Assembly (NCBI GenBank): GCA_964619725.1
Contig: CAZUFC010000018.1
Span: forward strand, 20,111-84,110
Direction of reading: 5' to 3'
Length of the DNA stretch: 64,000 bases
Origin: an uncultured bacterium
GTDB lineage: Bacteria > CSSED10-310 > CAZUFC01
The notes below the pieces were generated by a model. The model was not told where the DNA came from, made no database searches, and saw only the letters and a program-made list of their open reading frames with translations. The position numbers and the translations under genes were made by a program. Positions 4,453 through 48,911 of this stretch are shown piece after piece (within the stretch, counting starts at the first letter, position 1; each line of letters opens with the position of its first letter).

Positions 4453-4503
4453 CTTTTGCAGAAAAAACAATCGTTTGAACGAAGCGGCAGGATAGGGATT
4501 TCT

Positions 4504-10600: not shown

Positions 10601-10606
10601 AAGAGT

Positions 10607-14020: not shown

Positions 14021-14150
14021 ATATTCCTCCTTAATATAATTGAAAACAATACCCCTTCCGCTCACCAGTCAACAAGAGCAGCTTTCTCGTTTCATTTAAT
14101 ACACGTTTTATGGGTAAAAATGCAAATTTTTTACCTCACCCCCCGGCCCC

Positions 14151-14393: not shown

Positions 14394-14657
14394 GTGAGCA
14401 GTCCGGATATAGCATTGGGATGTATAGACTGGTGTAATTTTGACTGGATAAGGTCAAAGACCGGTTCAACGGCTATACGATATAGCTCCGGATGAGTTTG
14501 CACTCTTCTGCGATCATTTTTTGCTTCTGTTCGTCTTGTCCAAAGTTTGACTTGGGAACTCTGCGGCCTGTATTCTGAAATTACCATTCCCTTTTCGGGA
14601 GAAGTCGAATGTGACTGAAAAACATAAAAAATAAACGAGCAAAAAGCAGGTGAAATA

Positions 14658-23427: not shown

Positions 23428-23638
23428 TCAAATTGAGGCCGTATTTCTCATAATTGCATACTTCAGGAAACTAAATCGTAGAAGTTGATTTGACCGATTC
23501 ATCGCCGTGACGTACGTGTGAGGATTAACGAAGCGCGTTTTGAGGACGCTTGAGGAATTGTTTGATCTGTTGTTTTGAAAGGGGGGAATTGCAGGTTTTT
23601 GATGTTTGGAATTGATTTTATCAGAAGAGGAGGATGTA

Positions 23639-26683: not shown

Positions 26684-27823
26684 TCAGGAGGCGTTTTTTT
26701 CTTCAAACAATTTACGGCATTCGGCCAGTCTTTCGACAATAGAAATATCCTGAGGACATTTATCTTCGCATTCTCCGCATTCGGTGCAAGCGCTTGCGGG
26801 TTTACCGGGATACCAGGGGTCTTTTCCTATTCGATCATATTTTTCTCTGGCGAAATTCTGCATCTCGTAGACGTCGTGGTAAATCTGGAATTTAAGTATA
26901 AGCGGTATGTTCACTTCCTGCGGGCAGGGCATACAATACTTGCAGCCCGTACAGCGTATTTCTCCCTTTTTTTTCAATTCGGTCATCACTTGAACCGCTG
27001 AATCGATTTCATCGTTATTCAACTCAGCAGTCTTGCTCGCCCACAACAGATTCTCCCGCACCTGTTCGATGGAACTCATCCCCGATAAAGCGCAATCAAC
27101 ATCCGGATTCGACCATACGAACTGAAGTGCAAACCGGGCCCGCTCTTCTGCAGAAATATTAAGCTGTTCCAGGACGCTCGGACCGAATTCTGTTATCCGG
27201 CCGCCGGCTACAGGCCCCATGACGGCTATGCCGAGATCGCGCTCCTTGACTTTTTTCATGGATTCAGCGTTGCTCATATCCAGCAGGGAATACTGACACA
27301 GAACCGCTTCAAAAATATCAACCTCAGCCAATGTCGCCAAGTCTTCCGTCGGACCGTGAAACGAATAACATAAATGTCTGACCAGTCCCTCCTCTTTCAA
27401 TGCAGCGAATTTTTTTATCCAACCGAACTTGTCGTCAAGCTCTTTGTACTCTTTTTCATTAATCCCATGCAAATAATAAATATCCAGATAATCAGTCCGC
27501 AACTTCTCCAACTGTTCATCAAAAACGCGGCGGAAATCCCCAGGCTCCTTGTACACCCAACCCGGAGCCTTGGTTGATAAAATAATGTCCTTCCGATACG
27601 GCTCCAGCAACTTCCCCATCACATTCTCCGACTCGCCGCCATGATAAGGATACGCCGTGTCAAAATAATTCACGCCGCCATCCATCAACTCCTCAAACAT
27701 CAATTCCGTATGCTCCATGTCGATTTTCTTCATGTCGGCCGGATCGCTCAACGGCAACCGCATGCAACCCATCCCCAAACGCGAAATCTGAATGTCCGTT
27801 TTGCCGAACCTTTTGTAAATCAT
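26684..27823 (-). CDS. Aldo/keto reductase with C-terminal 4Fe-4S dicluster
   Basis: LGMGCMRLP, NYFDTAYPYHGGESE, LSTK, CTGCKYCMPCP and CTECGECEDKCPQ. Confidence 0.93.
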   Translation of the reverse strand: MIYKRFGKTDIQISRLGMGCMRLPLSDPADMKKIDMEHTELMFEELMDGGVNYFDTAYPYHGGESENVMGKLLEPYRKDIILSTKAPGWVYKEPGDFRRVFDEQLEKLRTDYLDIYYLHGINEKEYKELDDKFGWIKKFAALKEEGLVRHLCYSFHGPTEDLATLAEVDIFEAVLCQYSLLDMSNAESMKKVKERDLGIAVMGPVAGGRITEFGPSVLEQLNISAEERARFALQFVWSNPDVDCALSGMSSIEQVRENLLWASKTAELNNDEIDSAVQVMTELKKKGEIRCTGCKYCMPCPQEVNIPLILKFQIYHDVYEMQNFAREKYDRIGKDPWYPGKPASACTECGECEDKCPQDISIVERLAECRKLFEEKNAS

Positions 27824-29267: not shown

Positions 29268-30395
29268 TCAGTCCAGTTCCTCCGTCAATCTTGGAATCAT
29301 GCATGCCCATAGCATGGCTCGTTCTGACGTATGACCGAAGCGGCCTTTCAGCGGTTCTGAGCCGTCGGGTTCGAAGACTTCCATGTAAGTCCGGTATTTT
29401 TCTATGTGTTCGGTATATTGTTTGAGATAGAAGCGGGCTTTTTGGGGGTAGATTTTTGCAGTCATTCTGATGAAGATCGGGGCGTGAAGGGTCCAGATGG
29501 AGTCGCCTTGGTAATTGGGCATGAAGAGACGAGCCATGAGATGCGGCGGCGACTTCACATCCTTTTTTTCATGGTATTTCAAGGGGAAAGGTTTATCCAG
29601 CATCTTGCCGATTATAGCATCGATGGATTTTTTCATCATACCTTCGTCGTTGATTATGCCTGTCCAGTAAGGCCATACGTTTGCGTCGGACGAGCAGACG
29701 GGCTCATCGTCCTGCAGATCGTTGCGGAAATATTTGCCTGTCCAGAATGCCTTTATGAATTCATTTATCAGGTCTTCTTCGTCAAAAGGATTATCCAAAA
29801 TGTCCTCAAATTCTTTCAGCAACTCAGCGCAGAAAATCATGAAAGTATTGTCAGTGCATGAGCGTTTCCGTCCGGCTACGTCTTTAACGTTTGAAAAGTA
29901 ACGATTTGCAACTGTTTTCCGTTTTTTATCGAACACCGTTTTATAATATGTCCAGATTTCTTTGTTCAGCAGACTACGGTATTCAGCGGCCAGTTCTTTT
30001 TTTCCGGATTTTAAGAGGCAAAAAAGGAGGTAAGGGAGTGAGTCTGAGGAGTAGGTATAGATATTGACGGCAGCTTTTGACTGAAATATGGTCGTAGAGA
30101 TTTTTCCGTTTAGTTTATAGACATTGAGCGCCCATTTCAGGTTTTGAACGAGTTTGTATTTGTAACCGAGATAAAGGAGGTCTTCTATGCACCAGCCCAG
30201 GTCTCTGATCCAGAACTGGTCCAGATGTACTGCTCCGGCTTTGAAGTAACTGCCGTTCCAGCAATCGTCGGCGATAGATTTGCAGATTTGAACGGCATTA
30301 CCCTGGTATTTTTTGTATTTTTTTTTTGAGAGATCGTGCCTGAGCAGTCTTACGCCTTCTTTGATCATAATCCAGGAGTTGGCGATTCTGTTCAT
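29268..30395 (-). CDS. Putative (alpha/alpha)6 six-hairpin glycoside hydrolase
   Basis: QFWIRDLGW, DSLPYL, FWTGKYFRND, NYQGDSIW and YMEVFEPDG resemble invertase/debranching-type (a/a)6 barrels. Probable ATG at 30395. Confidence 0.6.
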   Translation of the reverse strand: MNRIANSWIMIKEGVRLLRHDLSKKKYKKYQGNAVQICKSIADDCWNGSYFKAGAVHLDQFWIRDLGWCIEDLLYLGYKYKLVQNLKWALNVYKLNGKISTTIFQSKAAVNIYTYSSDSLPYLLFCLLKSGKKELAAEYRSLLNKEIWTYYKTVFDKKRKTVANRYFSNVKDVAGRKRSCTDNTFMIFCAELLKEFEDILDNPFDEEDLINEFIKAFWTGKYFRNDLQDDEPVCSSDANVWPYWTGIINDEGMMKKSIDAIIGKMLDKPFPLKYHEKKDVKSPPHLMARLFMPNYQGDSIWTLHAPIFIRMTAKIYPQKARFYLKQYTEHIEKYRTYMEVFEPDGSEPLKGRFGHTSERAMLWACMIPRLTEELD

Positions 30396-30419
30396 GATAA
30401 ATGCTTCCCTCAATCGAAA

Positions 30420-32078: not shown

Positions 32079-33014
32079 CTACAAAAGAACATTCAGTGCC
32101 GAGGGGCAGATGCGGAACTTCGCCGGAAGCGTTCCCGTCTGCTCGCCGTCAATATCCAGAAACACTTTTTCATCCGACAGCGCTCGAACTTCCTGCGCCC
32201 TGTGCACCTCAACTTTCTCATGAAGTATGTGCTTTCCCGAATAAATCAACGGCATTGTTCTTATAAGGTCATAGGTTTCCAGTTCTTTGATGACTACTAC
32301 ATCGAAACGGCCGTCGTCTATTTCCGCATCGGGCGCCACGCACATGCCGCCGCCGAAGTATTTTCCGTTCGATATCGCCGCTCCTACAATTTTCTGTTCA
32401 TCCAGTTCCTTTTCATCCAAATAGAGTTTAACCTTCTTGGGAGCGAAACTAAGAATAGTCATTACTGAGCTGTAAAGAAAAGAAACAAAGCCGCCGAAAA
32501 ATTTGGTCGTTCGGTTAACCCTGTCAGCGACTTCTCCTCCTATTCCCATATCCGCTATGTTGATGAATCGCCTTTCGATTTTTTTCTGAGCGTGGTCGAC
32601 AAAAGATGCGATGCCAAGGTCGACTCTTTTAATTTTCCCGTCAGTCATTTTTTGTATCTGTTTTTCATAAGGAAATTTACCGGAAAGGGTTTTTATCAGG
32701 TCCTGTCCTGTGCCGACAGATATAATCCCTAATGCTGCATCGTCGTTGACAGGGAAACCGTCCTCTTCGAAGAATCCGTTAACGATTTCATTCACTGTTC
32801 CATCGCCGCCCACCGCCACGAGCAGATCGAATCCTTTTTTCAGTTTTTCGCGAGTCAAAGAAAGGGCTTCCATGGGTTGACGCGTAAATTGAGCTTCAAA
32901 TCGCCAGCCGTTAAGCTCCATTTTTTTTCTTATAAAAGGCCATATACGGGCAGCTTTTCCATTTCCCGCATTCGGATTGATTATTACAAATATTTCAGCG
33001 GATTTTACATTCAT
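32079..33014 (-). CDS. Diacylglycerol/lipid kinase family protein (DAGK-cat, YegS/DgkB-like)
   Basis: IINPNAGNG, AVGGDGTVNEIVNG, GTGQDL, NGKYFGGGM, DDGRFDV, DIDGE. Confidence 0.93.
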   Translation of the reverse strand: MNVKSAEIFVIINPNAGNGKAARIWPFIRKKMELNGWRFEAQFTRQPMEALSLTREKLKKGFDLLVAVGGDGTVNEIVNGFFEEDGFPVNDDAALGIISVGTGQDLIKTLSGKFPYEKQIQKMTDGKIKRVDLGIASFVDHAQKKIERRFINIADMGIGGEVADRVNRTTKFFGGFVSFLYSSVMTILSFAPKKVKLYLDEKELDEQKIVGAAISNGKYFGGGMCVAPDAEIDDGRFDVVVIKELETYDLIRTMPLIYSGKHILHEKVEVHRAQEVRALSDEKVFLDIDGEQTGTLPAKFRICPSALNVLL

Positions 33015-33026
33015 TTTCCGGTTACC

Positions 33027-34139
33027 TCACGCTCCAAGCGCTTCGCTGAGCACATCCATAATGTCTTTAACTCTGCCTTCTTTTCCGTCGACGTTATTAA
33101 ACGCTCTCGTGCATTCCGGACAGGCGGTAACGAGGATATCGCCTTTGCGTACTTTGAATTCCCGGAATCTTCTTTCGGCAATGGCGGCGGCTGTTTCAGG
33201 AACGGTAAAGGACAGCCGGCTTCCATAGCCGCAACAGATTGCATCTCTTTTATGCCAATGAAATTCCTGGAATCCGTTTCGGCAGATTTTTTCCAATATC
33301 CTTCTCGGCGCCTCGAATATATTAAGTTTTCTTCCCAAATAACAGGGATCATGATAAAAAATTTTCCCCTCGACCGGATGAACCGGCTTATTTACATCAG
33401 CAACGTAAGGGGAGAAAAATTCGGTTACATGGACGAATTCCGTTCTGCTTTTGAATCCCAGGGCGGGATAACGCTCCAGAAACTCAACCAGACATTCCGG
33501 GCTATGGCAGATAACCTTTTTCGCATGCTTTATATTCTTCCAGAATTTTCCGGCATGCTTTTCAAATTCATCGGCAAATCCCAGAACATCCAGAGGTTCG
33601 CCGCAGCAAAACGGCGGTTCCGTCATGACTCCCACAAAATCGATTTCAAAGAATTTCAGGAGTTTAATAATGGAAGCTAAAGTTTTCGGACTGTTCGCAA
33701 CTAAATCGCAACCAGGAAAATAGAGGACTTCTGCATCATTGACTTTGTATTCTTCGGGAACATAGTGATCGAGATTTTTTTTCAAGTCGGTTTTGTGAAG
33801 GCTGCCGAAATGAGTGAAATTCCGTTTCAAATTTCTGGTATCTCTGGAGATAAGTTTCAAATCGACGGCTTGTCGTCTTGCTTTTCTCATGACGTCGGGT
33901 ATTACGACGTCGTGATCGCAATATTCAAAGCATGCCATACAGAAGGCACAATGATGAAACAAAGAGGCGGTTTCGACGTCGAAAGGTCTAAAGCCTTTTT
34001 CGACAAGATAAAACAGCGTCTGCCTGCCCCATGGCGTAGACGTTTCGCTGCTTTCAGCAACGGCGACAGGGCATGAAAACCGGCACAATTTAGGACAATA
34101 AGCGCAATATCTGGTTTCCCATCCCGGTTCGTCAGTCAT
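33027..34139 (-). CDS. Fe-S oxidoreductase, GlcF/GlpC/HdrD-like (two ferredoxin motifs + two CCG domains)
   Basis: CAYCPKLCRFSCP, CAFCMACFEYC, YFPGC…CCG…SPEC, YHDPCYLGR…CCG…TACPEC. The ATG at 34139 overlaps the upstream stop. Confidence 0.9.
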   Translation of the reverse strand: MTDEPGWETRYCAYCPKLCRFSCPVAVAESSETSTPWGRQTLFYLVEKGFRPFDVETASLFHHCAFCMACFEYCDHDVVIPDVMRKARRQAVDLKLISRDTRNLKRNFTHFGSLHKTDLKKNLDHYVPEEYKVNDAEVLYFPGCDLVANSPKTLASIIKLLKFFEIDFVGVMTEPPFCCGEPLDVLGFADEFEKHAGKFWKNIKHAKKVICHSPECLVEFLERYPALGFKSRTEFVHVTEFFSPYVADVNKPVHPVEGKIFYHDPCYLGRKLNIFEAPRRILEKICRNGFQEFHWHKRDAICCGYGSRLSFTVPETAAAIAERRFREFKVRKGDILVTACPECTRAFNNVDGKEGRVKDIMDVLSEALGA

Positions 34140-36975
34140 AATGTATCTCCCTGAAAGCGGGGATTGAAGCCAGAAAACGACGAGCCTCCTTCGCCATTGT
34201 CCATTTTTCCTCCGGATAGTATAAAAGCTCACCTTTGCGTTTAAGCATCAGAAGGCTTAATCCCGCTTTTTCAGCCGTCTTTTTAATATCTTCATCACTC
34301 GGCAGGGCACTTTTTTTCATTTTTATCCAAAGCGTCGCTCCGTGCTTATTGCATCTGCTGAGCATCGCCGGTTCTCCGCAGACATCATTGAAGAATGAAT
34401 CGTTGCTGAATATTATCAGCAGGTCTTTCCAGATTCCTGAAACGGAAATCATCCGCTCATTCATTTTCAGGTTGAACAATTCTGAATTTTTTTCAATTTG
34501 CACCTCAGATAACCTGTCGCCGATATTTTTCATGCTTTTTTGAAATCGCTCGAGTTGGATGGACGCTCTTTTGCGGTCTCCGTATGACGTGGCCTGTACA
34601 AGTAATTTTCGTCCGCCGTCATCGAACAGCATTTCGCAATGAAGAGTCGTCATATCGGCTGCCAGGAGTCCGGCGATCGCTTTAAGAGTTTTCCGGGCAT
34701 CTGAAGTTTGAAAAATTTCACTTGCGGCCGCTTTTTCTATTCTGCGTATTTTGAACCTTACCGCAGTCATCAGCACGAAATGACCGCCCGAACCTATGAA
34801 AAGAGGCTTCAGATCGGGGCCTGCAGCGGAAGCGGGAACATTCCTGGTTTTTAATTCCGATCCGTCCGGAAGAAGGCCGGTCCAGGATAAAATGGAATTT
34901 TCAAGACTCATTTCCGTCAATCCGTCAGGATAAACCATGCGAGCGCCGAGCAGACCTCCGAGAGTACCTTCATCATATCGATTGCAGGCGAAGGCCGGCC
35001 TGTAACCCTCTTCTTTGAGTTTTTCAATGATGTCCTTGATTTTTGCTCCGCTTTCGGCTTCCGCTGTCATGGTAATGGGGTCCGGCTTGAAGATGCGGTT
35101 AAGCGAAGTCATTCTAATGATATATGCGCCGCTCAATTCACCCGGATTAAAAAAAGTTCTCGTTCCGTTACCCACAACATAAATTTTTTTATTTTTACCG
35201 AACAATAAGCTTATGCATTCCGCCAATTGATTTTTGTTCTCCGGCATCATGATGCATTTCGGTAAATCCGCTTTTTCCGGCGTCATGAAGGGTAATGACT
35301 TTTTCACGAAATCGGCGATTTCGGCGCTGTCTTTTATGATCCCTTTTTTTCCTGCAATAGTTTCCAGTCCTCTCACCGTATCTTTTCTCTTTTTAGTCTT
35401 TTTCGGAACATCAATATTGTCAGGATTCAGACTCATTTTACCGGGATTCATTAAACCACCGGGATCAATAACGCTTTTGAAGCTACGCAAGACATTGATG
35501 CCGTTGCCTTTTTCTTTCGGCATCCAATTTTGCTTAAGGAACCCTATACCATGATGATGAGATATCGTCGCATCGCATTCGAGAAAAGCATCGAGGGCTT
35601 GCGCCCATACCCATTGATGCGTTTTCAGCGCTGTTTCAGCATCATTTTCATTTCCCACGACAGAAAAATAAATGGAACATCCTTCGGGGTAGGGATGAGA
35701 AAAATGCGCCATAATGAATGCCTTTTTACGGACCTTACTTATAACGGCATGGTATAGAGCTTCCACTTTATCCCAGGTTGCGCAGGTTTCTATCGTATCG
35801 ACGAAGGAGCCAGCGTCGAAAATTTTCGATTGGTTGTATGACACGTGATAGCGGTTGTTCCACCAGTTTTCAGCGGGTTGGCTGCCGGCGTTTTCTCCGT
35901 CGTTTTTCTCGCATATATCCGTTGCAGCCTTAAGATCATGGGCAGATATTTCGTCATTCCCTTCAAACGTCATAATCAGTAAACATTTGTCGGGAATGAT
36001 GCCCGCCGGCAGGTTCAGTTTTGTCGGATGAGCGAGCAACCAGGCTTCGCTTCTGGAATAGATGGATTTCGATATAAATTCAAGTGCCTTGAACAAATGT
36101 GTATTCAGCAGTTGCGCCGTAAGAGGCGTTTTACCTCCGGAGGATTTCCCCACGAGCAGGGTGTCGAAGGGATCGTACAGTCTGACGGCTGCAGGTTTAA
36201 CGTCGCTCTGCATTATTTCCCGTATAGCGTTCAAAGCATCCTTTAAGTTTTTAAAATAGAATCCCTGAAAACATCGCGCCGCCGGTTTCCGGTATATTTT
36301 AAGCGTAGCCTGGGTAATGACGCCCAGGGTTCCTTCCGCTCCCACGAACAGTTCTCCCGCGTTCTTCTCATGCGAAGGAAAAAGTTCAGGTGACGTCGTT
36401 TCAACGATCTTTCCATTCGGTAAAACTACTCTTAGAGCAACGATCATATCTTCAATCTTGCCGTACCGGGGGGAAAGCTGCCCTGCGCTTCGAGCGCTGA
36501 TCCAGCCTCCCAAAGCCGAGCAGTAAATGGACGAAGGGAAATGACCGAGAGTAAACCCGCGATATTGCAGTTCCCTTTCCAGTATTTCACCGATGATGCC
36601 GGTTTGAACTTTAGCGATAAGGCTGTTTTTATCCAGGGAAATGATGCGATTCATACGCTTCATATCCAAAATGACGCCGCCTTCCAACGGCGCTGTTCCT
36701 CCGCATACCCCTGAGCCGCAACCAAAGGGAACGACAGGAACGGATTCCGCCCGGCAAACCTCCAATATCCGGGAAATTTGTCGTTCGTTTTTGGGTTTAA
36801 CTATTATTGAAGGAAAGGGACAATATTTGCCGGCTCTTAATTTGATGATCGACCGAGGGTCCAGGTCCCTTGAATAGGCTATTTTATCCGGCTCGTTATG
36901 CGAAATGTTCGGTTTTTTGACGATTTTTTCAAGTTTTTTTTCTACGGCGCTCAGTTTTTGTATTCGTTCATTCAT
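34132..36975 (-). CDS. Alkyl-dihydroxyacetonephosphate synthase (AGPS)-like FAD enzyme fused to a second GlcE-like FAD-binding domain
   Basis: PFGCGSGVCGG, LGHFPSSIYCSALGGWISARSAGQLSPRYGKIED, GAEGTLGVIT, AVRLYD, AHFSHPYPEGCSIYF, SHHHGIG (AGPS His triplet) and DPGGLMNPGK. After a Lys-rich linker comes a second FAD-PCMH domain (GTLGG, GPDLKPLFIGSGG). Confidence 0.85.
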   Translation of the reverse strand: MNERIQKLSAVEKKLEKIVKKPNISHNEPDKIAYSRDLDPRSIIKLRAGKYCPFPSIIVKPKNERQISRILEVCRAESVPVVPFGCGSGVCGGTAPLEGGVILDMKRMNRIISLDKNSLIAKVQTGIIGEILERELQYRGFTLGHFPSSIYCSALGGWISARSAGQLSPRYGKIEDMIVALRVVLPNGKIVETTSPELFPSHEKNAGELFVGAEGTLGVITQATLKIYRKPAARCFQGFYFKNLKDALNAIREIMQSDVKPAAVRLYDPFDTLLVGKSSGGKTPLTAQLLNTHLFKALEFISKSIYSRSEAWLLAHPTKLNLPAGIIPDKCLLIMTFEGNDEISAHDLKAATDICEKNDGENAGSQPAENWWNNRYHVSYNQSKIFDAGSFVDTIETCATWDKVEALYHAVISKVRKKAFIMAHFSHPYPEGCSIYFSVVGNENDAETALKTHQWVWAQALDAFLECDATISHHHGIGFLKQNWMPKEKGNGINVLRSFKSVIDPGGLMNPGKMSLNPDNIDVPKKTKKRKDTVRGLETIAGKKGIIKDSAEIADFVKKSLPFMTPEKADLPKCIMMPENKNQLAECISLLFGKNKKIYVVGNGTRTFFNPGELSGAYIIRMTSLNRIFKPDPITMTAEAESGAKIKDIIEKLKEEGYRPAFACNRYDEGTLGGLLGARMVYPDGLTEMSLENSILSWTGLLPDGSELKTRNVPASAAGPDLKPLFIGSGGHFVLMTAVRFKIRRIEKAAASEIFQTSDARKTLKAIAGLLAADMTTLHCEMLFDDGGRKLLVQATSYGDRKRASIQLERFQKSMKNIGDRLSEVQIEKNSELFNLKMNERMISVSGIWKDLLIIFSNDSFFNDVCGEPAMLSRCNKHGATLWIKMKKSALPSDEDIKKTAEKAGLSLLMLKRKGELLYYPEEKWTMAKEARRFLASIPAFREIHYD

Positions 36976-37056
36976 CGTTTATTTTCCATCTGAAAAATTA
37001 GAAATGTTCTTTCCGGTTCGCAAAGCATCAGGGTTATGCCCCGGCCTATCAGCAAA

Positions 37057-38283
37057 TCAGCGCTTTTCATTACCGCTTTCAGATTGCTTAAGAAATTCTG
37101 AGAAAGTCATAACCGGAAAATCGTCTAAATCCGAGAACTTTCTGAAAACATAACGGCTGGTAGGACAAAATGTGACCATAATTTTCGCCTTTGAGAGGAA
37201 AGCCCGTTGCACGCCTTGAGCCGCCATTGCTTTAACCAGTTTCTTGTGAGTGATTCCCGCGCCTCCGCCTGCGCCGCAACAGGGAGCGGTTTCCGGGTCC
37301 TGGTCCATGTTCGTTATTTCCGCTCCCGTTTGTTTCAGGAGCATTCTGTTCAGAACGCCCAGGTTTTCATACCGGGTAAGCAGACAGGGATCGTGTATAA
37401 ATATCTTTTCGGGGATGCTCAACGACGGCAAACGGTTTCGAAGCGCTTCGGTAATAAAGAGAATCCTGAATGAATGTTTGAAGTAAGGGCTGTTTTTAAA
37501 GAAAAGGAAGCAACCGGGACATCCCGTTATAATTGTGTCTGCACCTGCTTTTCTCAACATCTCCAAATTACGGCGAATCAAGTTCTCCTGTTCTGAAGAT
37601 GGGAAGCCGAAAACATCAAGTATCCTCCCGCAACAGACTTCATCGATTAAGCCGGCTTGCAGGCCTGCTTTTTTTAACCAATAAAGATCATGGTCCGCTG
37701 TTTCAGGACTTCTCCACCGGACCGTGCAACCTCTGAAATATACGATTTGAAATTTACCGGTTGCCTGGCCTCCGGACTGCCCGAAAATATTTCCGCTTTG
37801 CTGCAGGTTCTTTATCGTTTTTTGAATTTTTTCAGGAAGCTGTTCCCGTGACGTCCGGTAAACCGAGCTCCGCACGAATTTGACCATCTGAGCGACAGGA
37901 ACTTCCTCCGGGCAAACAGACTCGCATTGCCGACATAGCAGGCACATGTAAAGCCGGTCTGTCGTGGAACGACTTTCCGGAACAGAACGGCCGTAAGCCG
38001 TCACGTATTCCCGTGGGCCGGGAAATTCCGGCAGACTGCCGGTTTTTACTAGTTCACAATGATCTTCGCATAGTCCGCAACTGACGCATCTTTCAAATTC
38101 AGGCAATCTTTTCAGGTCGTTGAAAGTATAACCGGAGATTCTGTCTTCATGATACGTTTTCTCAAATTCATCAGCCTGATCGCTTCTGGATTTGAATATT
38201 CCGGCGATTCTTTGAAAAAGATGAATATTGAACCTGATACCCAGATGAAAAATGGCGCTGATCGCTCCTCTTATCTTCCCCAT
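37057..38283 (-). CDS. glpC: Anaerobic glycerol-3-phosphate dehydrogenase subunit C-like Fe-S protein
   Basis: CVSCGLCEDHC, CLLCRQCESVCP, YFRGC…CCG…TGCPGC, HDPC…CCGAGGG; follows glpA-glpB. Probable ATG at 38283. Confidence 0.75.
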   Translation of the reverse strand: MGKIRGAISAIFHLGIRFNIHLFQRIAGIFKSRSDQADEFEKTYHEDRISGYTFNDLKRLPEFERCVSCGLCEDHCELVKTGSLPEFPGPREYVTAYGRSVPESRSTTDRLYMCLLCRQCESVCPEEVPVAQMVKFVRSSVYRTSREQLPEKIQKTIKNLQQSGNIFGQSGGQATGKFQIVYFRGCTVRWRSPETADHDLYWLKKAGLQAGLIDEVCCGRILDVFGFPSSEQENLIRRNLEMLRKAGADTIITGCPGCFLFFKNSPYFKHSFRILFITEALRNRLPSLSIPEKIFIHDPCLLTRYENLGVLNRMLLKQTGAEITNMDQDPETAPCCGAGGGAGITHKKLVKAMAAQGVQRAFLSKAKIMVTFCPTSRYVFRKFSDLDDFPVMTFSEFLKQSESGNEKR

Positions 38284-38299
38284 GATCCGGCTTTTCCTT

Positions 38300-39688
38300 T
38301 CAACCGCCTCCCGCAAAAAGCGAAGGAACATTCAATCCGGCGGCGTATCCCGTCAAAAGAGCGGTCCCTAATCCGCAACTTTCCTCTACAGGATCGTAAC
38401 CGCTCAGGACAGAACCGGCGAGCATGACATTTTTCCAGATGACCTTACCGGTGTCATCTACGGGACGTAACATGCCGTCGGTCCATATGCCCGATGAAAA
38501 CAACGGTTGTTTTCCGAAAAAAGATGGATGGCTTAATTTGGCTGCGTTCGCGGCGCTCAGAACTCCATCGCGTGATTGAAGTTCAAGGTTCAACAATTTA
38601 TTACAAACAGCGCCCTTATCGTTTAATTCGGTTCCGGCAAACCGTCCGACTGCGAAAATAAAAGCGTCTGCCTCGATTATCAGTTCGGCGCCTGATATCT
38701 TTCTCAGACAGACCGCTTCAATTCCGTCTCCTTCCGTATTAAATTTAACCGATGCGATACGGCCCCGGAGAACAGGAATACCGGCAGACATCAGCATTTT
38801 TTCCAGTCTGCGTTTTATCCTGATTCCCGCAGCCCCGGGAAACGGCGATACTATCTCAGCGACGGATTTGTTCAGCTCATTTTCCAGTATCTGCAGACAT
38901 TCTTCATGCCGCTCCAGTCCCAGAACACAGGGAAAAATCACCATATCAACATCGTTCGAGAGCGATTTCAATTCAGTTTTCACTTTTTCAGCGATTTTAA
39001 GGGAACAAGAAGCATCATCCAATTTTCTTGCGATTTGAGCGGCTTTGATTTCGTGGGAATTCTTCAAATCATCCAGCTCTAATTCGCATGCCTTAACTGA
39101 TTTACTGAAAGAACCGGATGATAATGAGTTTTGTAATTTTTCTTTGAGGAATGCCGAGATATACCCGGCTGAAAATTCCGGATATTGTTTAAAACCTGTA
39201 ATCAGAAGCGATTTCGAGTTCAGATTTTCTCTTCTACATTCGTAAAAGGCCGGCAGGCAATAATCGGTCCAACGATAGGCGCCGAAGGAGGTCAAAAGTT
39301 CTATCGATCTCTCAGGCGTTCCTTTCCAATATGATTCGTCCTCGCCGTCATCGAATGCTTCAACAACGGCACGAACAGCTTTTGAAAGTCCGCCGTTATC
39401 ATTTTTACTTCGGATAATTTCCGCTACTTTGGCATAAGGATGTTCCGGATTGCGCTCGATAAGCCGCTTTATCCTCTGATCTAAATTCAAGTCCCGGCGG
39501 TTATTAATTCGATAATAGTCGTCCCACTCGGTGGGAGAAGCGAAATGAAGCAAGCCCGATGAAAGTTGCGTTTCACCTCCCCCGCCTTCAAGGACGCACA
39601 AATTGAGACCGGATTCTTTCGCTTTCAGGGCTGCCATCGTTCCTGCAGCTTCTGCCCCTGCGATGATCAGATCGTAACGCCGGTTCAT
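38300..39688 (-). CDS. glpB: Anaerobic glycerol-3-phosphate dehydrogenase subunit B-like flavoprotein
   Basis: YDLIIAGA…G, LSSGLL, FPCVLGL, GIRI, AVGRF, GIWTD…LRP, NV.LAGSVL.GYDP…CGLGTALLTGY.AG. Confidence 0.85.
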   Translation of the reverse strand: MNRRYDLIIAGAEAAGTMAALKAKESGLNLCVLEGGGGETQLSSGLLHFASPTEWDDYYRINNRRDLNLDQRIKRLIERNPEHPYAKVAEIIRSKNDNGGLSKAVRAVVEAFDDGEDESYWKGTPERSIELLTSFGAYRWTDYCLPAFYECRRENLNSKSLLITGFKQYPEFSAGYISAFLKEKLQNSLSSGSFSKSVKACELELDDLKNSHEIKAAQIARKLDDASCSLKIAEKVKTELKSLSNDVDMVIFPCVLGLERHEECLQILENELNKSVAEIVSPFPGAAGIRIKRRLEKMLMSAGIPVLRGRIASVKFNTEGDGIEAVCLRKISGAELIIEADAFIFAVGRFAGTELNDKGAVCNKLLNLELQSRDGVLSAANAAKLSHPSFFGKQPLFSSGIWTDGMLRPVDDTGKVIWKNVMLAGSVLSGYDPVEESCGLGTALLTGYAAGLNVPSLFAGGG

Positions 39689-39770
39689 CGGTAATCCCTC
39701 CGGTATTTCCGGTTGCCGGGTAAAAGGAGGCGGCAGAAGCGCCCCTGGTTGAATAGGAGAGTATTACAAT

Positions 39771-41426
39771 TCATTTTAATGCGCCTGTACCCAGATGTAT
39801 AAAACGATTTATCTGTTCCTGCAGCAGGTTGATCCTGGAAGCGACGGGACGGCGGTTTTTCCATTTTGATTGAAGAAAAGAGCGTAATTCATTTTTTATC
39901 TGATCCGCTCCCCATTCCAATTCTTCTCCAAGAATAACCGCTGCCTGGAATGAACAGGAAAAACCTCCGCAGGGACCCATCCCGAGTCTCGTCCGCCTGC
40001 TGATGTCTTCCAGCGTTGCGGCATGTTCATGTCTCACGGCGTGCCTGATTTCAGCGCGACTGATCGATTCGCACCGGCATATAATGGTTTTTTTGTCCTG
40101 GTCGTCCCATTCGTCCGATTCCAGTATATCCTGCGCCGTCGTTCCATATCGGCAAATCATACGTTCCGCAGCTAACTCGATAATACCGTGTTTTCTTGCA
40201 AGTTCGCCGGCGCTTACGGAGGATGCGCTTCCCGGTAAAGGGAGCTCCCGGGTTCTGCAGGCGCTGCAGGTACGCTTTCTGTTCAGTTTTTCACATACGC
40301 GGTCAACAGCCTTTTCCGCCATCAGGCGATAATCAGCCAATTTTCCTCCCGTTATAGTCGCCAATCCTTCGATGCCGTCAGACTCAGCGTGATCAATTAC
40401 TTTGAAATCCCTGGACAGGCGATCCTCGTTCACCCCCCAATCGAACAAGGTAGGCCTAATACCGGCTATCACCCCTGTGATCCGTGCCTCCCTGATCCGG
40501 GGAAGAACCCGCTCCATCGACGCCAGCAGGTATTCGACCTCATCATTTAAAACTTCAATATCGTCCAAATCTCCGAAATAATCATCATCCGTCGTTCCCA
40601 GCATGCTGATGTTTTCATGCGGCTGAACGAATATCTCACGCCCGTCCATGGCCGTGGCTACGACGGCATAATTCACTATCCGCCGATCGAACAGAATGTG
40701 CACCCCTTTGGCAGGCCTGAGCTTCACCTCCGCACCGGCCATCTCAGCCAATTCCGAAGACCAGGGTCCGCCGGCATTTAAAATTATATCGCATTCCAAT
40801 TCCTTGTATTCACCCGTCAATTCGTTCACGCAATTCAGTCCCGTTATTCTTCGGCCTTCCCGTCTGAAACCGGCCGCTCGATGGTGATTCCATATCTCAG
40901 CGCCGTGCTCCCTGGCTGATAAAGCATTCAAAAGACATAAACGATATACGTCTATCCCCCATTCATCAAAAGTGATCGCTCCCTCCGTCATCCACGACAA
41001 TCCCGGTTCCAACTTCAAAACCTCTTCTCGCCTCAACCTCAAATGACGTTTGCCGCCCTTTAACCGGCTGAACCGGTCATATTCCTTCATGAAAGTTTCG
41101 ATCAATTCTATCTGTATCTTCGGAAATAACTTATCCTTCAAGACAGGAAATATAAAAGGAATGCGGAATATCAGATGTCCCGCGTTTTCTGCTATTGAAC
41201 CGCTGTCCTCACAAGCGTCTCGCGTCGTCTTGCGATCATACAGCAAATATCGCACGCCGCCGTGGATCATGCCGCTCGATACGCCGCTCGTTCCCGATCC
41301 GAAATCGTTTTTCTCAAGCAATAACGTCTTTACGCCCCGCAGCGCCAGATCACGCGCGCACCCGCTGCCCACTGCTCCGCCGCCGATCACGATACATTCA
41401 AATTTTTTTTCTCCTCTTTCTTTCAT
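39771..41426 (-). CDS. glpA: Anaerobic glycerol-3-phosphate dehydrogenase subunit A-like (FAD, C-terminal BFD-like 2Fe-2S)
   Basis: IGGGAVGSGCARDLALRG, GTSGVSSGMIHGGVRYL, PAKGVH, GTTD, AGIRP, ITGGKL, ICRCE…RRTRLGMGPCGGFSC. Probable ATG at 41426. Confidence 0.9.
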   Translation of the reverse strand: MKERGEKKFECIVIGGGAVGSGCARDLALRGVKTLLLEKNDFGSGTSGVSSGMIHGGVRYLLYDRKTTRDACEDSGSIAENAGHLIFRIPFIFPVLKDKLFPKIQIELIETFMKEYDRFSRLKGGKRHLRLRREEVLKLEPGLSWMTEGAITFDEWGIDVYRLCLLNALSAREHGAEIWNHHRAAGFRREGRRITGLNCVNELTGEYKELECDIILNAGGPWSSELAEMAGAEVKLRPAKGVHILFDRRIVNYAVVATAMDGREIFVQPHENISMLGTTDDDYFGDLDDIEVLNDEVEYLLASMERVLPRIREARITGVIAGIRPTLFDWGVNEDRLSRDFKVIDHAESDGIEGLATITGGKLADYRLMAEKAVDRVCEKLNRKRTCSACRTRELPLPGSASSVSAGELARKHGIIELAAERMICRYGTTAQDILESDEWDDQDKKTIICRCESISRAEIRHAVRHEHAATLEDISRRTRLGMGPCGGFSCSFQAAVILGEELEWGADQIKNELRSFLQSKWKNRRPVASRINLLQEQINRFIHLGTGALK

Positions 41427-41433
41427 AATGTCA

Positions 41434-41462
41434 TTTCTAACCGTATTAACGCATTGTGTCAA
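41434..41462 (-). promoter_or_regulatory. Candidate sigma70 promoter of the glp/AGPS operon
   Basis: TTGACA-17-TAGAAA on the minus strand, 7 nt before the ATG. Confidence 0.5.
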
Positions 41463-41505
41463 GAGCTTGAAATAAATAATCATTACGGGAAAAATTAAAA
41501 AATTC

Positions 41506-41643
41506 GGGAATGATCAACCCGGGGTTGCACTTCATTCTAAACTTTTGACGTTTTGTTTCAGTAATCGGGATCGCAATCGAAACAAAATGAGGGGAGATTC
41601 TGTCGAATTGTAACCTCAAAAGACGCCTCTTTGATCGATGCCC
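41506..41643 (-). mobile_element. Complete 'TGATCA family' element (138 bp)
   Basis: The reverse complement, ggcatcgatcaaagaggcgtcttttgaggttacaatt…cgattgcgatcccgattactgaaacaaaacgtcaaa…gcaaccccgggttgatcattccc, is colinear with 10452-10600. Confidence 0.85.
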
Positions 41644-41781
41644 TCTCTAAAAAATGCATATCGCTTTATCATTGTCAATCATCAAACGCATCGCATAGAA
41701 TGAAGGCTGCGTAGAATTTTGGTCGCATGAGCAGGACATCAAATCAGGATCGCCGAAATAAAGTCGGCAGAGCAGGGAAAA

Positions 41782-42708
41782 ATGTTGAACCGTGTGAAGA
41801 ATTTCTTTATTTACAGCAGATTTCCGTTTTTTACGGGAGTGGTCATGCCGGTAATGATAGGGACGAGTCTTGCTTATGCGGAAGGACATCCTGTGCATTG
41901 GGTTCGTTTTCTGATGGTTCTGGCCGGGATGGTGTTTGTTCATGCCGGTATGAATCTGGCCAATGATTATTATGATTTCAAGAGCGGGGCCGACCTGGGG
42001 AACCGCAATCGAGGACCTTTTTCAGGAGGCGGTCCGGCGCTGATTGAAAAGCGTGCGACACCTGGGCATGCAAAAGTATTGGTTGTATTTTCATTTGCCG
42101 TATCGGCGCTGATGGGTATTTCACTGGCATTGGCGGTGAAGGAAGTCCTGGGGCTGTTAATTTTTCTGATGGTCGCCGGTTTCCTGGGCGGCTATTTTTA
42201 TGCTGCGCCGCCGGTGCAGCTTGCGTACAGGGGATATGGCGAATTGTTCATATTTCTTTGTTTCGGGCCGCTTGTTGTTCTGGGCGCTTATGCGGTCCAG
42301 AGCAGTATTTTTTCCTGGTCTGCAGTGTGGGCAGGCTTTCCTGTCGGGTTCCTCATAACCAATGTCTTATGGATCAACCAGTTTCCCGATGCTGAATCAG
42401 ACAGGCAAGCCGGAAAAATGACCCTGGTGGTAAAAATGGGAAAAGCTCGTGCCCGTATACTTTTTTATCTCTTTTTTGCGGCGGGGTTTGCTGCACTGCC
42501 TGTTCTTTTTTTTGCGGGAGTGATAAAAGCGCCGGCGCTTGTCGCTCTGATTCCTGCCTTATTGGCCCTGAAGGCTTCGCTCATATGCCGCAGGCATTAC
42601 GATAATGCAAAGGCTCTCCTGCCTGCGCAACGTTATACCATCCTGGTCCATGCTTCCACGGGCATCCTGATGGCGCTCGGTCTGACGGCATCCGGTTTTA
42701 TCTCTTGA
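41782..42708 (+). CDS. menA: UbiA-family prenyltransferase, MenA (DHNA octaprenyltransferase)-like
   Basis: NLANDYYDFKSGAD, FSGG, YAAPP.LAYRGYGE, FGP, INQFPDAESD..AGKMTL.V; multi-TM. Confidence 0.85.
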   Translation: MLNRVKNFFIYSRFPFFTGVVMPVMIGTSLAYAEGHPVHWVRFLMVLAGMVFVHAGMNLANDYYDFKSGADLGNRNRGPFSGGGPALIEKRATPGHAKVLVVFSFAVSALMGISLALAVKEVLGLLIFLMVAGFLGGYFYAAPPVQLAYRGYGELFIFLCFGPLVVLGAYAVQSSIFSWSAVWAGFPVGFLITNVLWINQFPDAESDRQAGKMTLVVKMGKARARILFYLFFAAGFAALPVLFFAGVIKAPALVALIPALLALKASLICRRHYDNAKALLPAQRYTILVHASTGILMALGLTASGFIS

Positions 42709-45864: not shown

Positions 45865-46110
45865 GGCATTGATCAAAAATGGCCATGTCAGGGTTACAAT
45901 TTCTCAGCTTGAATCCTTCGTGCTCGTGCTCAGCACAGCGGTAATCGTAATCGAAATATCGGTCTGATTTGTACAGTCATTTGAAAGCAAAGTAGGACAA
46001 TCATTTGAATCGCTCGATTACGATTACGAGCACGAGCGCCGCTCCGTTGAGCACGAAAGTTCTTTTTGAGTATCGAGATCACAATTTGTAACACCTGTTT
46101 GATCAGTCCC
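45865..46110 (+). mobile_element. Complete 'TGATCA family' element (246 bp, GATTAC/GAGCAC interior)
   Basis: ggcattgatcaaaaatggccatgtcagggttacaatt … aatttgtaacacctgtttgatcagtccc; the interior has inverted hexamer blocks. Confidence 0.85.
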
Positions 46111-46175
46111 TAAATTTTTTATGCCAATGTGGAAAGGCGTTGCGAATTTTTAATCCGTAAACGAGAGAATATTTC

Positions 46176-46290
46176 GGGACTGATTAAACACCGATTACAA
46201 TTTGACCTATCAAAAAATCGACGAAAGAATTCTCCCTTTGGATGTCCGGCAAAATTGTAATCACGAAAGACACATTTTTGATCAATGACC
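46176..46290 (-). mobile_element. Minimal 'TGATCA family' element (115 bp)
   Basis: gggactgattaaacaccgattacaatt … aattgtaatcacgaaagacacatttttgatcaatgacc. Confidence 0.75.
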
Positions 46291-46309
46291 AGGAATATAA
46301 CGAAGTCGC

Positions 46310-47281
46310 TTATATAATTCGTAATCCGTAATGAAATAATTCCTTAAAAAAGACTTCTCGTTTTCCGGGTTCCTCAAGTAATTTCACAATGTCCCATCTT
46401 GATTCGACTAATCTGTCATTATCCATTCTTTTAATAAGCTCTTCAGTAAACACGGCGCCGAGATAAAAATTTTTACATCGGTGGGAATTTTTTAGTGCGT
46501 TTTGGAAAGATTTTGTGGCTGCTCCATATCTTTCAAGAGCGCCGGCAGGGTCTGTTCCCCCTTTTATCTCTACCACTGCAAGTAATTTGTCTTCTTTAGC
46601 GAATGAAATGTCGGGTTCTGTTCCGAATTTCATTGTAATGTCTTTTTTAAGCTTGAAAGTTTTAGGTAAGTCTTCACTTTCAACATTCGTTAGTTTTATT
46701 TTTGGATATAATATCAATTTTTCCTCTATCATCCATTCCAACAGGGCAATCTTAATTTTCTCTTCAGCTAGCCTTCCGATTTTATTTCTCATGGCGCCGT
46801 CGAGTGTAATTCCCATATTCGCCACAATACATCGATGACCATCGTCCAATTTCCAGTTCTTTACGTTTTTGACAATTGCGCAGATGAATGAGTTATATGT
46901 TTTGGCCATGAGAAGAGCTTTTTCTTTCGACAAGCTGATTTTATCTCTTCCGCTTTCCAATGATTCGATTGATCCGAAATAGCTTTTAGCCGCTTTGATG
47001 GAAAGTCCTGATAGTCCGCGATAGTAGAGGCTTGTACGGGGATAAAATTGTAATATTTCTGGATGGCAGAATACCAGTTCAGGGTTGTAATTTAATTTTT
47101 TTATATAATCCCATGCGTCGTTTGAAATATTTAAATGTTCAAGAGGACGCCATTTAAGTTTTCTCCTGTTATTTTTGATTAGTTGGAGAGCTTTAATATC
47201 CTGACGCTTTTTTAATGAGGAAGCAACCAGCAAAGACCTGATTCTTCTCAATTCTTCAACGTATTTGCTCTGTTTCTTCAT
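46310..47281 (-). CDS. Type II restriction endonuclease (XcyI/BsoBI-like, PD-(D/E)xK)
   Basis: GITLDGAMRNKIG…EPDI…VEIKGGTDPAGALERYGAA; directly downstream of a DNA methyltransferase; AT-rich. Confidence 0.8.
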   Translation of the reverse strand: MKKQSKYVEELRRIRSLLVASSLKKRQDIKALQLIKNNRRKLKWRPLEHLNISNDAWDYIKKLNYNPELVFCHPEILQFYPRTSLYYRGLSGLSIKAAKSYFGSIESLESGRDKISLSKEKALLMAKTYNSFICAIVKNVKNWKLDDGHRCIVANMGITLDGAMRNKIGRLAEEKIKIALLEWMIEEKLILYPKIKLTNVESEDLPKTFKLKKDITMKFGTEPDISFAKEDKLLAVVEIKGGTDPAGALERYGAATKSFQNALKNSHRCKNFYLGAVFTEELIKRMDNDRLVESRWDIVKLLEEPGKREVFFKELFHYGLRII

Positions 47282-47289
47282 GGATTATC

Positions 47290-48738
47290 TCATGTAAAAG
47301 TTTGCCTTTCATTGGATTTAGACCAGCGATAAACGCATTTACGGAGTTCACGTCTGCCATGTTCTCCCATTTGCTGCGAGCTGTTCCCTTTTCCTTTAGA
47401 AAGGAACCAGATGTAATCGACCTTCAGACCGGCGCTTTCAGCGAAATCAGACAGAATAAGGTCGACTGGTATTTCTTCTCCATGATAACGTACGTTATCG
47501 TTTACCATAAAAAAATGTCCGTTTGGTTTGAGAATTCGTGCCAATTCTCGAATAACAAGATTCATTTCAAAAAGATAATTTTCGATTAAATTTGGAATAT
47601 TGTTATTATTCAATTCTTTTTTTTCTTTTGCTTCATAGAGCAAATCGAGTATTTCACGAACTGCCTTTTGGTCATTAAAGGCTTGAGACGCAGAATTAAA
47701 GAAATCCATCTTGCCGCGAGCGCTATATTCGCTAAGAAGATTTTTTCGTTTGCTTTTATTTTCCACTGTGCATGACAATAATTCCTGTCTTAGTCTTTTG
47801 ACATCTTTTTCGTCATTTTCCATAAAGGCGAGTTCCAGAGCGTATGTTCGCGTATAATCGTATCTGTTTGCGTAGGGAGGTGATGTAATTATTACGTCTA
47901 CTGAATGCGTTTCCAGTTCCGGCAATTTGCTCAGACAGGAACCTTCTATCATTGTGGGCACGATTAACGGACAAGCATCATTTTTCCGTTCGATGTCTCT
48001 CAGCATTATGTTTAATTTATCCATTATCGCCATTTCAAAGTCAGGAATGAAACCTTTATTGAATCGTGATTTAATTTTTCGTCCAGCCCGGTAATCCCAT
48101 CTCAGATACTGTCCATCCTTTCTGGTGTAGCTAATTTCTTCGAGAATGGAAAAACATGCAAACCACAACAAAAATTGGATTTTGGCATCATCTATAGTTT
48201 CCAGAAAATCCATATAAACGGAAATCAAATATTCAGCTTCTTCAGAAAATGCTCCTCTGGTAATATTCAGATGCGGAAAACGATAATTGCAAAATGAAGG
48301 TCTATCGGATAAAAGTCTTTTAACTTTTTCGAGGTAACATCTGAATTTTGTCGGTTCGATTTGAAGTGCAAATAATCGAGCTTTTAGAATTGCGGGTCCT
48401 ATGGGTAAAATTTCAATGCCTATAGAGGAAAATCCATTTTCAAATGCGACATTCAATGTTGTCCCTGCGCCCGCAAAGGGATCAAGGATTCTGATATTTT
48501 TAGATTTAGTCCTGTCTGTATTTTTCAGCAGATACTTTACGAGATTGGAAGAAAAAGCTTCTTTAAATTTGAACCAACGGTAAAATGGAGATTGTTTGTT
48601 ATCCTGAAAGCTGACCATTCTTCTGTTCAAATGCTCATTTATTAAGAGTCTGTCAGCATATTTTACAAAGAGCGAATCACGTTTTCCTGCTCTGATGGCT
48701 TTAAATTCCGATTTTACGCTTTTTTGTTGCACGGTCAC
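47290..48738 (-). CDS. DNA amino-methyltransferase (N4-cytosine type, SPPY; M.AvaI/M.BsoBI-like)
   Basis: YRWFKFKEAFS, motif I LDPFAGAGTT preceding motif IV ITSPPY, and GNSSQQMG. Probable GTG at 48738 after AGGAG. Confidence 0.9.
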   Translation of the reverse strand: MTVQQKSVKSEFKAIRAGKRDSLFVKYADRLLINEHLNRRMVSFQDNKQSPFYRWFKFKEAFSSNLVKYLLKNTDRTKSKNIRILDPFAGAGTTLNVAFENGFSSIGIEILPIGPAILKARLFALQIEPTKFRCYLEKVKRLLSDRPSFCNYRFPHLNITRGAFSEEAEYLISVYMDFLETIDDAKIQFLLWFACFSILEEISYTRKDGQYLRWDYRAGRKIKSRFNKGFIPDFEMAIMDKLNIMLRDIERKNDACPLIVPTMIEGSCLSKLPELETHSVDVIITSPPYANRYDYTRTYALELAFMENDEKDVKRLRQELLSCTVENKSKRKNLLSEYSARGKMDFFNSASQAFNDQKAVREILDLLYEAKEKKELNNNNIPNLIENYLFEMNLVIRELARILKPNGHFFMVNDNVRYHGEEIPVDLILSDFAESAGLKVDYIWFLSKGKGNSSQQMGEHGRRELRKCVYRWSKSNERQTFT

Positions 48739-48911
48739 GGGATGATTCTCCTGACATCGAAAAATGATATGACAACTAGTACGTAAAGTCAAAGGTCAAA
48801 ATCGATTAGCAGGTAAGTTAAAAGGACATTCAGTTTTGACTGGCAAAATGACTTTACTACGAGACAGAACATCATCCGCCATCCGGCAACCACCATCCGG
48901 GATTCAACCCA

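Follow-up and report, generated by a model that had tools for sequence, protein, structure and literature searches.

A conserved gene module of an AGPS-like flavoprotein, a GlcF-like iron–sulfur subunit and a lipid kinase, joined to GlpABC-like genes in an uncultured bacterium

Introduction

Sediments and animal tissue are rich in glyceryl ether lipids, as are predatory and sulfate-reducing bacteria. AGMO carries out O2-dependent cleavage of alkylglycerols, and to our knowledge the only known ether-cleavage enzyme needs O2; we likewise know of no gene assigned to alkylglycerol kinase activity. The exchange reaction of alkyl-dihydroxyacetone phosphate synthase (AGPS) is redox-neutral and involves no net electron transfer. 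Here we analyze a run of six genes in a 64,000-nucleotide stretch of contig CAZUFC010000018.1 (assembly GCA_964619725.1, an uncultured bacterium), hereafter the window, which carries a conserved module made up of an AGPS-like flavoprotein, a GlcE-like pseudo-subunit, a GlcF-like iron–sulfur (Fe-S) subunit and a lipid kinase, joined in this host to genes for GlpABC.

In M. xanthus the AGPS gene MXAN_1676 sits with a gene for a fusion of fatty-acyl reductase (FAR) and GNPAT, termed FARAT, and with an epimerase-family gene, and its loss leaves ether lipids only slightly lower (PMC9131029, PMC13012113). "Distant agps homologues" are mentioned, with their partners undescribed, in PMC13159169, 10.64898/2026.06.23.733905 and PMC11948995. 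A description of an AGPS-like/CCG/lipid-kinase module was not found in the literature searched, which did not extend to supplementary tables that possibly list members.

Results

Six co-oriented genes on the minus strand

The minus-strand run at 32079-41483 consists of six co-oriented genes, with menA facing the other way:

39771-41483, minus strand: GlpA-like FAD subunit, 570 aa, with DAO, DAO_C and a BFD-type [2Fe-2S] domain (Pfam, NCBIfam)
38300-39688, minus strand: GlpB-like flavoprotein subunit, 462 aa, matched by Pfam FAD_binding_2 and the NCBIfam GlpB models
37057-38331, minus strand: GlpC-like Fe-S subunit, 424 aa, with Fer4 (2x[4Fe-4S] motif), two CCG domains and a basic amphipathic N-terminus
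34132-36975, minus strand: AGPS-like/GlcE-like fusion, 947 aa, with two FAD_binding_4 stretches and FAD-oxidase_C
35416-36975, minus strand: AGPS-like catalytic half of the fusion, residues 1-520, with Arg265, Tyr436 and His473-475
34132-35328, minus strand: GlcE-like degenerate second half of the fusion, residues ~550-947, FAD_binding_4 only, without the HHH region
33027-34139, minus strand: GlcF/GlpC-like CCG Fe-S subunit, ~370 aa from the ATG at 34139, with two CCG domains and two 4-Cys motifs
32079-33014, minus strand: YegS/DgkB-family lipid kinase, 311 aa, with DAGK_cat and YegS_C (TIGR00147)
41782-42708, plus strand: menA (1,4-dihydroxy-2-naphthoate polyprenyltransferase), TIGR00751 at 114.2 against a cut-off of 102.15

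From glpA to the kinase gene, successive genes are separated by 82 bp, overlap by 32 bp, are separated by 81 bp, overlap again and are lastly separated by 12 bp, which agrees with an earlier note on this DNA that had described six co-oriented genes with gaps of 82 bp or less or overlaps and had read them as a candidate anaerobic ether-lipid pathway. The ATG at 34139 is the more likely start of the CCG gene and makes its first 8 nt coincide with the last of the fusion gene; the frame is open further upstream too, to a GTG at 34232 (33027-34232). The same note had reported that the cluster holds no glpK, glpF, glpT or acyltransferase gene, and none is present within 32079-42708, nor does glpQ lie alongside; it had also placed menA divergent from the GlpA-like gene, and 298 bp separate the two. 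Consensus scans for promoter-like and terminator-like sites gave counts at the shuffled expectation (13 versus 14.8 and 16 versus 15.3, respectively), so that the operon call is founded on spacing and synteny only. Its recurrence among 80 loci from other genomes, described below, takes the arrangement beyond chance.

The flavoprotein carries the AGPS active-site residues on a branch of its own

A PDB sequence search (phmmer) with residues 1-520 of the fusion returned Dictyostelium AGPS at 4.5e-70 (239.5 bits) and guinea-pig AGPS at 3.6e-52 (180.3 bits), with mouse D-lactate dehydrogenase behind at 8.6e-39. Both Pfam domains of the PCMH/VAO-type fold of AGPS, FAD_binding_4 and FAD-oxidase_C, were found on the fusion (E 2e-57 and 3.5e-38), and an AlphaFold model of the entire protein (pLDDT 73.6, pTM 0.81) retrieved the AGPS entries 5ae3 and 2uuv on top in Foldseek (E ~4e-27), followed by D-lactate dehydrogenase (~8e-23). 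When the catalytic Tyr and Arg of AGPS are identified through the mutant PDB entries 4bca and 4bc7, alignment pairs Arg265 of the fusion with guinea-pig Arg419 and Tyr436 with Tyr578, and the SHHHGIG stretch matches the AGPS HHH loop (His473-475).

To place this protein we drew on a protein search with the fusion, which gave 2969 matches among 8000 scored candidates; identity to the nearest fused relative is no more than 36%, across 78% of the length, and unfused relatives of ~520 aa reach 48% identity over the N half. Among species-representative genomes at least 592 stretches encode a relative of the flavoprotein, and the best 80 of these loci, all from other genomes, served as the synteny sample, which was searched with the window proteins by tblastn. 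A tree of 94 rows (IQ-TREE quick search, LG+G4), from which a short GlcD-like row and two of the 80 loci, neither yielding an N-domain as long as 440 aa, were left out, contains a 100* branch that parts the three GlcD-like outgroup rows from all AGPS-like rows. The canonical AGPS orthologues, namely a Polyangium protein scoring 568.8 bits to guinea-pig AGPS and seven more from 61 Myxococcota genomes, form one group (8 rows, 100*) that joins a third type of AGPS-like protein (99*) apart from the family to which the window protein belongs, whose genes are linked to CCG and kinase genes. The window protein is the earliest branch of that family (SH-aLRT 87, unstarred). Long branches and uneven composition drew a warning, so the deep order of the tree is provisional.

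The third type was seen in Myxococcota; it keeps the Arg, Tyr and HHH residues and scores only ~225-250 bits to solved AGPS. Its loci, numbered as in our sample, are as follows:

L106:7084-8850
L107:7589-9154
L108:7345-9306
L117

Arg265, Tyr436 and His473-475 are invariant in 79/79 family rows, 8/8 canonical AGPS rows and 4/4 third-type rows, and absent from all three GlcD-like rows, where the position that reads H-H-H throughout the family reads x-E-H. Four further residues, H424, H427, R375 and K173, are invariant in the 79 family rows as well, and in canonical AGPS the corresponding residues are R, Q, T and N; H427 is common to the family and to GlcD-like proteins. With His474, the four might make up a metal site.

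Two assignments were tried and rejected. A GlcD or D-lactate dehydrogenase is contradicted by the motif, the PDB scores and the tree, and the fusion scores 241.8 against a cut-off of 567.9 for TIGR00387 (GlcD). An AGPS orthologue is contradicted by the clade, the gene neighbors and the scores, at 180 bits to guinea-pig AGPS (4bby) compared with 569 for a canonical orthologue. Thus the proposal that the protein is AGPS-like and does not group with GlcD was borne out by its place on the AGPS side of the 100* branch and by its catalytic residues, and the AGPS identity held for the signature but not for orthology. By sequence the flavoprotein clade is an uncharacterized one, on the AGPS side and separate from canonical AGPS.

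A GlcDEF-like layout and a lipid kinase

The second half of the fusion (residues ~550-947), identified through Pfam and hhalign, matches FAD_binding_4 at E 2.9e-17, and together with its stand-alone counterparts aligns to residues 47-424 of the N half (hhalign probability 99.9%, E 3.3e-37); the catalytic C-terminus is missing. This half is a separate open reading frame (ORF) between the AGPS-like and CCG genes in 20 other loci, which implies an ancestral layout of three genes, as in glcD-glcE-glcF. In the CCG protein, two Cys motifs stand out among 14 aligned homologues, with C13, C16, C20 and C24 of the first and C65, C68 and C75 of the second invariant and C71 nearly so.

When the N half was modeled together with the CCG protein from our own alignments, the ipSAE was 0.90 (0.91, 0.90 and 0.90 in three runs), compared with 0.00 for the best of three controls; 58 of 80 solved complexes reach that mark, as do 2 of 110 mismatched pairs. 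The runs share at least 95% of contacts, with a partner pLDDT of at least 91, and the predicted interface lays CCG residues 11-23, which include the first Cys motif, on residues 86-88, 128-152 and 376-387 of the FAD domain. The modeling supports binding of the CCG protein to the AGPS-like FAD domain. We refer to the AGPS-like catalytic part, the degenerate GlcE-like part and the GlcF-like CCG part as complex 2, whose layout is that of GlcDEF; its NCBIfam matches to GlcD, GlcE, GlcF and YdiJ are weak, all far under the equivalog cut-offs.

The last gene of the run encodes, on sequence evidence, a YegS/DgkB-type lipid kinase: it passes TIGR00147 (YegS/Rv2252/BmrU) at 171.6 against a cut-off of 118.65, carries DAGK_cat and YegS_C (E 5e-27 and 3e-37), has S. 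aureus DgkB as its nearest solved structure (E 6.1e-22) and falls under the cut-off of every equivalog-level NCBIfam model. The earlier call of a DAGK-family lipid kinase therefore stands.

Recurrence of the module in other genomes

The best 80 loci come mostly from Myxococcota or "Deltaproteobacteria" metagenome-assembled genomes (MAGs), with some from Bdellovibrionota, Planctomycetota, Cloacimonadota and Wallbacteria, and Lujinxingia vulgaris (locus L031) and a Polyangium strain (L096) are cultured carriers. The gene maps, made with an ORF caller filtered on third-position GC, are rough, and the neighbor counts use tblastn instead. A CCG gene follows the AGPS-like gene in 49 of the 63 loci for which at least 3.5 kb of downstream sequence was available, and a lipid kinase gene does so in 35 of the 55 with at least 5 kb. 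Conservation of the cluster, on which the earlier note had made its reading depend, was thus found for this triad. GlpA (at least 300 bits) lies upstream in 8 of the 53 loci with at least 5 kb available on that side, and also on one short contig outside this count; the linked loci are labeled "Deltaproteobacteria", Bdellovibrionota and Myxococcota MAGs, and mapped on the tree the link requires at least 4-5 changes. In one clade of six family members the CCG and kinase neighbors have been lost. No MenA match was found at any of the 80 loci, and we treat the menA adjacency as incidental.

An Lnt-like N-acyltransferase gene (~900 aa; LNT_N and CN_hydrolase) comes right after the kinase gene on the same strand in 10 loci (e.g. 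L026:8486-11182), which may reflect lineage inertia or a link to lipid remodeling. The remaining recurrent neighbors are housekeeping genes; fatty-acyl reductase, glycerolipid acyltransferase and FARAT are absent from the recurrent neighbors of the module, and the 10 downstream ORFs scanned at bacterial loci lacking the lipid kinase contain no FGGY-type kinase. Of 61 Myxococcota genomes sampled, 23 contain the family, 8 contain canonical AGPS and one contains both, an overlap that is not significant (hypergeometric P ~0.12) and is drawn from related genomes that are not independent.

The GlpABC-like genes

Scores for the three upstream genes all fall below the cut-offs of the equivalog models: 406.9 bits against a cut-off of 552.8 for GlpA (TIGR03377), 142.4 against 174.15 for GlpB (TIGR03378, with the NCBIfam GlpB models at about 142-148, below their cut-offs) and 89.4 against 278 for GlpC. 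The nearest solved structures to the GlpA-like protein are alpha-glycerophosphate oxidase and glycerol-3-phosphate (G3P) dehydrogenases, and we assign complex 1, from its sequence, as a GlpABC-like G3P dehydrogenase. The GlpA-like and GlpB-like proteins are the sole such homologues in the assembly, which has no other GlpA/GlpD match, and a different contig carries a canonical glpK, which scores above its cut-off at 699.9 bits. This GlpABC therefore looks like the ordinary G3P dehydrogenase of the cell and not like a lipid-specialized duplicate. A second, specialized GlpA was considered and rejected, there being no other copy in the host assembly or in the five linked genomes checked (5/5), and the GlpABC-like step of the earlier scheme is weakened to that extent.

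In several loci a ~140-aa 2x[4Fe-4S] ferredoxin without CCG domains replaces GlpC ahead of the AGPS-like gene, and at such loci the downstream CCG protein may serve both flavoproteins. The examples are:

L013:9507-9938
L042
L046:8471-8929
L053:624-1058

Host genome and the rest of the window

The host assembly amounts to 9.17 Mb in 344 contigs and is 90.9% complete and 6.5% contaminated, and the relatives listed for it share its phylum at closest. At that completeness no haem-copper oxidase was found, and the only cytochrome-bd-like match is weak (44 bits), which fits an anaerobe or a microaerophile within the limits of an incomplete genome. None of 13 same-phylum relatives of the host gave a family-level match to the flavoprotein (best 258.7 bits). 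Myxococcota are a largely aerobic phylum, and the presence of the family in 23 of 61 of their genomes means that the module is not specific to anaerobes; of the anaerobic setting first proposed, the host thus keeps its part, but the module is commonest in Myxococcota.

Nine kilobases from the cluster, at 22001-23116 on the minus strand, lies a gene for a FAR-like NAD_binding_4 ("male sterility") protein of 371 aa, which is the best NAD_binding_4 match in the assembly (152.9 bits) and scores 232 bits, under the cut-off, against the N-terminal half of NCBIfam PRK07201. Fatty alcohol or aldehyde could come from this protein, whose gene is outside the operon.

On the downstream side of the kinase gene stand a MATE transporter gene and then, 6 bp past it, a 381-aa ORF (29268-30413, minus strand) without a Pfam or NCBIfam match; a 1025-aa ORF at 23606-26683 (plus strand) also matches neither. 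The gene at 26684-27823 (minus strand) joins an aldo/keto reductase to a C-terminal 4Fe-4S dicluster domain, an unusual pairing. An XcyI/BsoBI-like restriction endonuclease gene adjoins an N6/N4 DNA methylase gene at 46310-48792 (minus strand), in the stretch of lowest GC content in the window (0.379 at 46001-48000), and the pair is probably an acquired restriction-modification island. The series of large, probably secreted proteins at 1748-18407 includes a sulfatase-TPR fusion (GC 0.58 versus ~0.47 elsewhere), a 1482-aa laminin-G/cohesin protein, a C13-peptidase/fn3 protein and a 1249-aa subtilase.

Discussion

Possible functions of the module

We give a probability of roughly 40% to the reading that the module is a redox-coupled route for the salvage or cleavage of 1-O-substituted (ether or ester) glycerolipids. 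In this mechanism the kinase would phosphorylate the free primary hydroxyl of a 1-O-substituted glycerolipid, either an alkylglycerol or a monoacylglycerol, after which the sn-2 hydroxyl would be oxidized to a ketone by complex 2 itself or by GlpABC, with electrons leaving through the Fe-S subunit to the quinone pool. The AGPS-type site would then break or exchange the C1-O bond through a flavin adduct, yielding dihydroxyacetone phosphate (DHAP) and a fatty alcohol or acid. Overall the process would be an oxygen-independent salvage or cleavage that feeds the same G3P/DHAP node as GlpABC. Each conserved component suggests one part of this scheme: the lipid kinase, entry of an unphosphorylated lipid alcohol; the Fe-S subunit, a net flow of electrons to quinone; and the AGPS-type site, C1-O exchange or cleavage ending at DHAP. 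Salvage is favored over de novo synthesis because the kinase is present in 35 of 55 loci and no reductase or acyltransferase recurs, and the link to G3P and DHAP is drawn from the upstream GlpA in 8 of 53 loci, a label that changes at least 4-5 times on the tree.

Several observations weigh against this assignment. AGPS chemistry proceeds with no net redox change, which makes the part assigned to the Fe-S subunit conjectural, and the pass in complex prediction may partly reflect likeness to solved flavoprotein/Fe-S complexes. The differences from canonical AGPS at H424, H427, R375 and K173 indicate that the pocket may differ, and all six proteins lack transmembrane segments. In all five other linked genomes checked, the linked GlpA is the only match at E 1e-15 or better, and a lipid substrate for GlpA is hypothetical. 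Finally, the near-exclusivity with canonical AGPS in Myxococcota is a mild, statistically not significant hint of functional equivalence, that is, of synthesis.

In the boldest form of this reading, the module would carry out an O2-independent dismantling or chain swap of ether lipids, through an alkylglycerol kinase, a quinone-linked oxidation to alkyl-DHAP and a flavin-adduct ether cleavage to DHAP and fatty alcohol. We regard this version as possible but somewhat doubtful. The scheme as first drawn left the Fe-S subunit, which is conserved and predicted to dock, unexplained, given that AGPS exchange needs no net electrons.

The module might instead be an alternative bacterial alkyl-DHAP synthase system, which we judge unlikely. 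The AGPS-like site would swap the sn-1 acyl for a fatty alcohol, GlpABC would supply DHAP or oxidize acyl-G3P, the kinase would recycle dephosphorylated intermediates, and the Fe-S subunit would reduce alkyl-DHAP to alkyl-G3P or keep the flavin oxidized. Such a system would account for the full conservation of the AGPS catalytic residues and for the single overlap between canonical AGPS (8) and the family (23) among 61 Myxococcota genomes, although this near-exclusivity is statistically not significant. The best FAR-like gene of the genome, at 22001-23116, would fit as well, but five ORFs of at least 150 aa lie between it and the cluster, and it stands outside the operon. De novo synthesis that starts from acyl-DHAP, moreover, does not call for a conserved kinase. 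Ether-lipid producers are known from the groups of many carriers (PMC9131029, PMC13159169); beside the module, however, neither FAR nor acyltransferase nor FARAT recurs, whereas the M. xanthus AGPS has FARAT (PMC9131029).

A quite unlikely alternative takes complex 2 as a quinone-linked dehydrogenase of the GlcDEF type that acts on a small phosphorylated glycerol-like or hydroxy-acid compound, in which case the AGPS-like residues would do other chemistry and the DAGK-fold kinase would act on a soluble alcohol. The GlcD/GlcE/GlcF layout with its predicted FAD/Fe-S contact is consistent with such a dehydrogenase, as are the lack of membrane segments and the retention of His427, present in GlcD-like proteins too but lost from canonical AGPS. 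The family does not, however, branch with GlcD-like proteins, and all 79 members have HHH in place of the EHG metal motif. The kinase passes the YegS/Rv2252/BmrU model and has DgkB as its nearest solved relative, and no FGGY kinase takes its place among the 10 downstream ORFs scanned at bacterial loci where it is missing.

It is improbable that ordinary anaerobic G3P respiration by GlpABC merely adjoins the triad, as two unrelated operons with no functional meaning to their contact, since, for all that GlpA is the sole G3P dehydrogenase homologue with glpK elsewhere, that the GlpA link occurs in only 8 of 53 loci and that the menA adjacency is not conserved, the linkage recurs on separate tree branches (at least 4-5 label changes) and in differently labeled lineages, the spacing is tight (an 81-bp gap in the window) and several loci have a mini-ferredoxin between glpB and the AGPS-like gene.

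If the redox-coupled salvage or cleavage of 1-O-substituted glycerolipids is correct and extends to ethers, it would be the first known way of breaking down glyceryl ethers without an oxygenase, and an AGPS active site would have arisen inside a respiratory GlcDEF-type dehydrogenase. The family is also intermediate in evolution between 2-hydroxyacid dehydrogenases and AGPS. With its AGPS site, its Fe-S subunit of respiratory type and its lipid kinase, the module is a candidate, open to testing, for the turnover of ether lipids under anoxic conditions or for a second route of ether-lipid synthesis in bacteria. It is also widespread, as the at least 592 genome stretches encoding a flavoprotein relative attest, and the family offers a clear signature, conserved partners and cultured carriers.

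Comparison with known systems

The DgkB/YegS/BmrU soluble kinases share with the window kinase the TIGR00147 assignment and the DAGK_cat and YegS_C domains, with DgkB as the nearest structure, and we know of no characterized member described in a position after an AGPS-like/CCG pair. Systems for the lipid class on which the module would act include PlsA/PlsR-Ger, which performs anaerobic ester-to-ether reduction, and ElbD of myxobacteria (PMC13159169, PMC9131029). These and AGMO belong to unrelated families, and none of them uses an AGPS-like flavoprotein with an Fe-S partner. E. coli-type GlpABC has the same A-B-C order, the BFD [2Fe-2S] tail on GlpA and Fer4 with two CCG domains in GlpC; the window differs in its sub-cut-off scores and in an operon that runs on into the AGPS-like genes. 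GlcDEF and the fused YdiJ dehydrogenases contain the same parts as complex 2, namely a catalytic FAD subunit, a degenerate FAD_binding_4 and a 2x[4Fe-4S] plus two-CCG subunit, but the window family has HHH instead of the EHG metal motif of GlcDEF and branches apart from GlcD-like proteins. AGPS itself (EC 2.5.1.26; PDB 2uuu and 4bby; MXAN_1676) is alike in fold, is the best match in sequence and structure and has the same catalytic Arg, Tyr and HHH loop. Unlike AGPS, for which the absence of an electron-transfer partner is a trait, the family has a CCG gene in 49 of 63 loci and a predicted docking of 0.90 with this Fe-S partner; the window protein forms part of a separate clade and is fused to a degenerate second copy, and the neighbors of its family are a CCG protein and a lipid kinase in place of FARAT.

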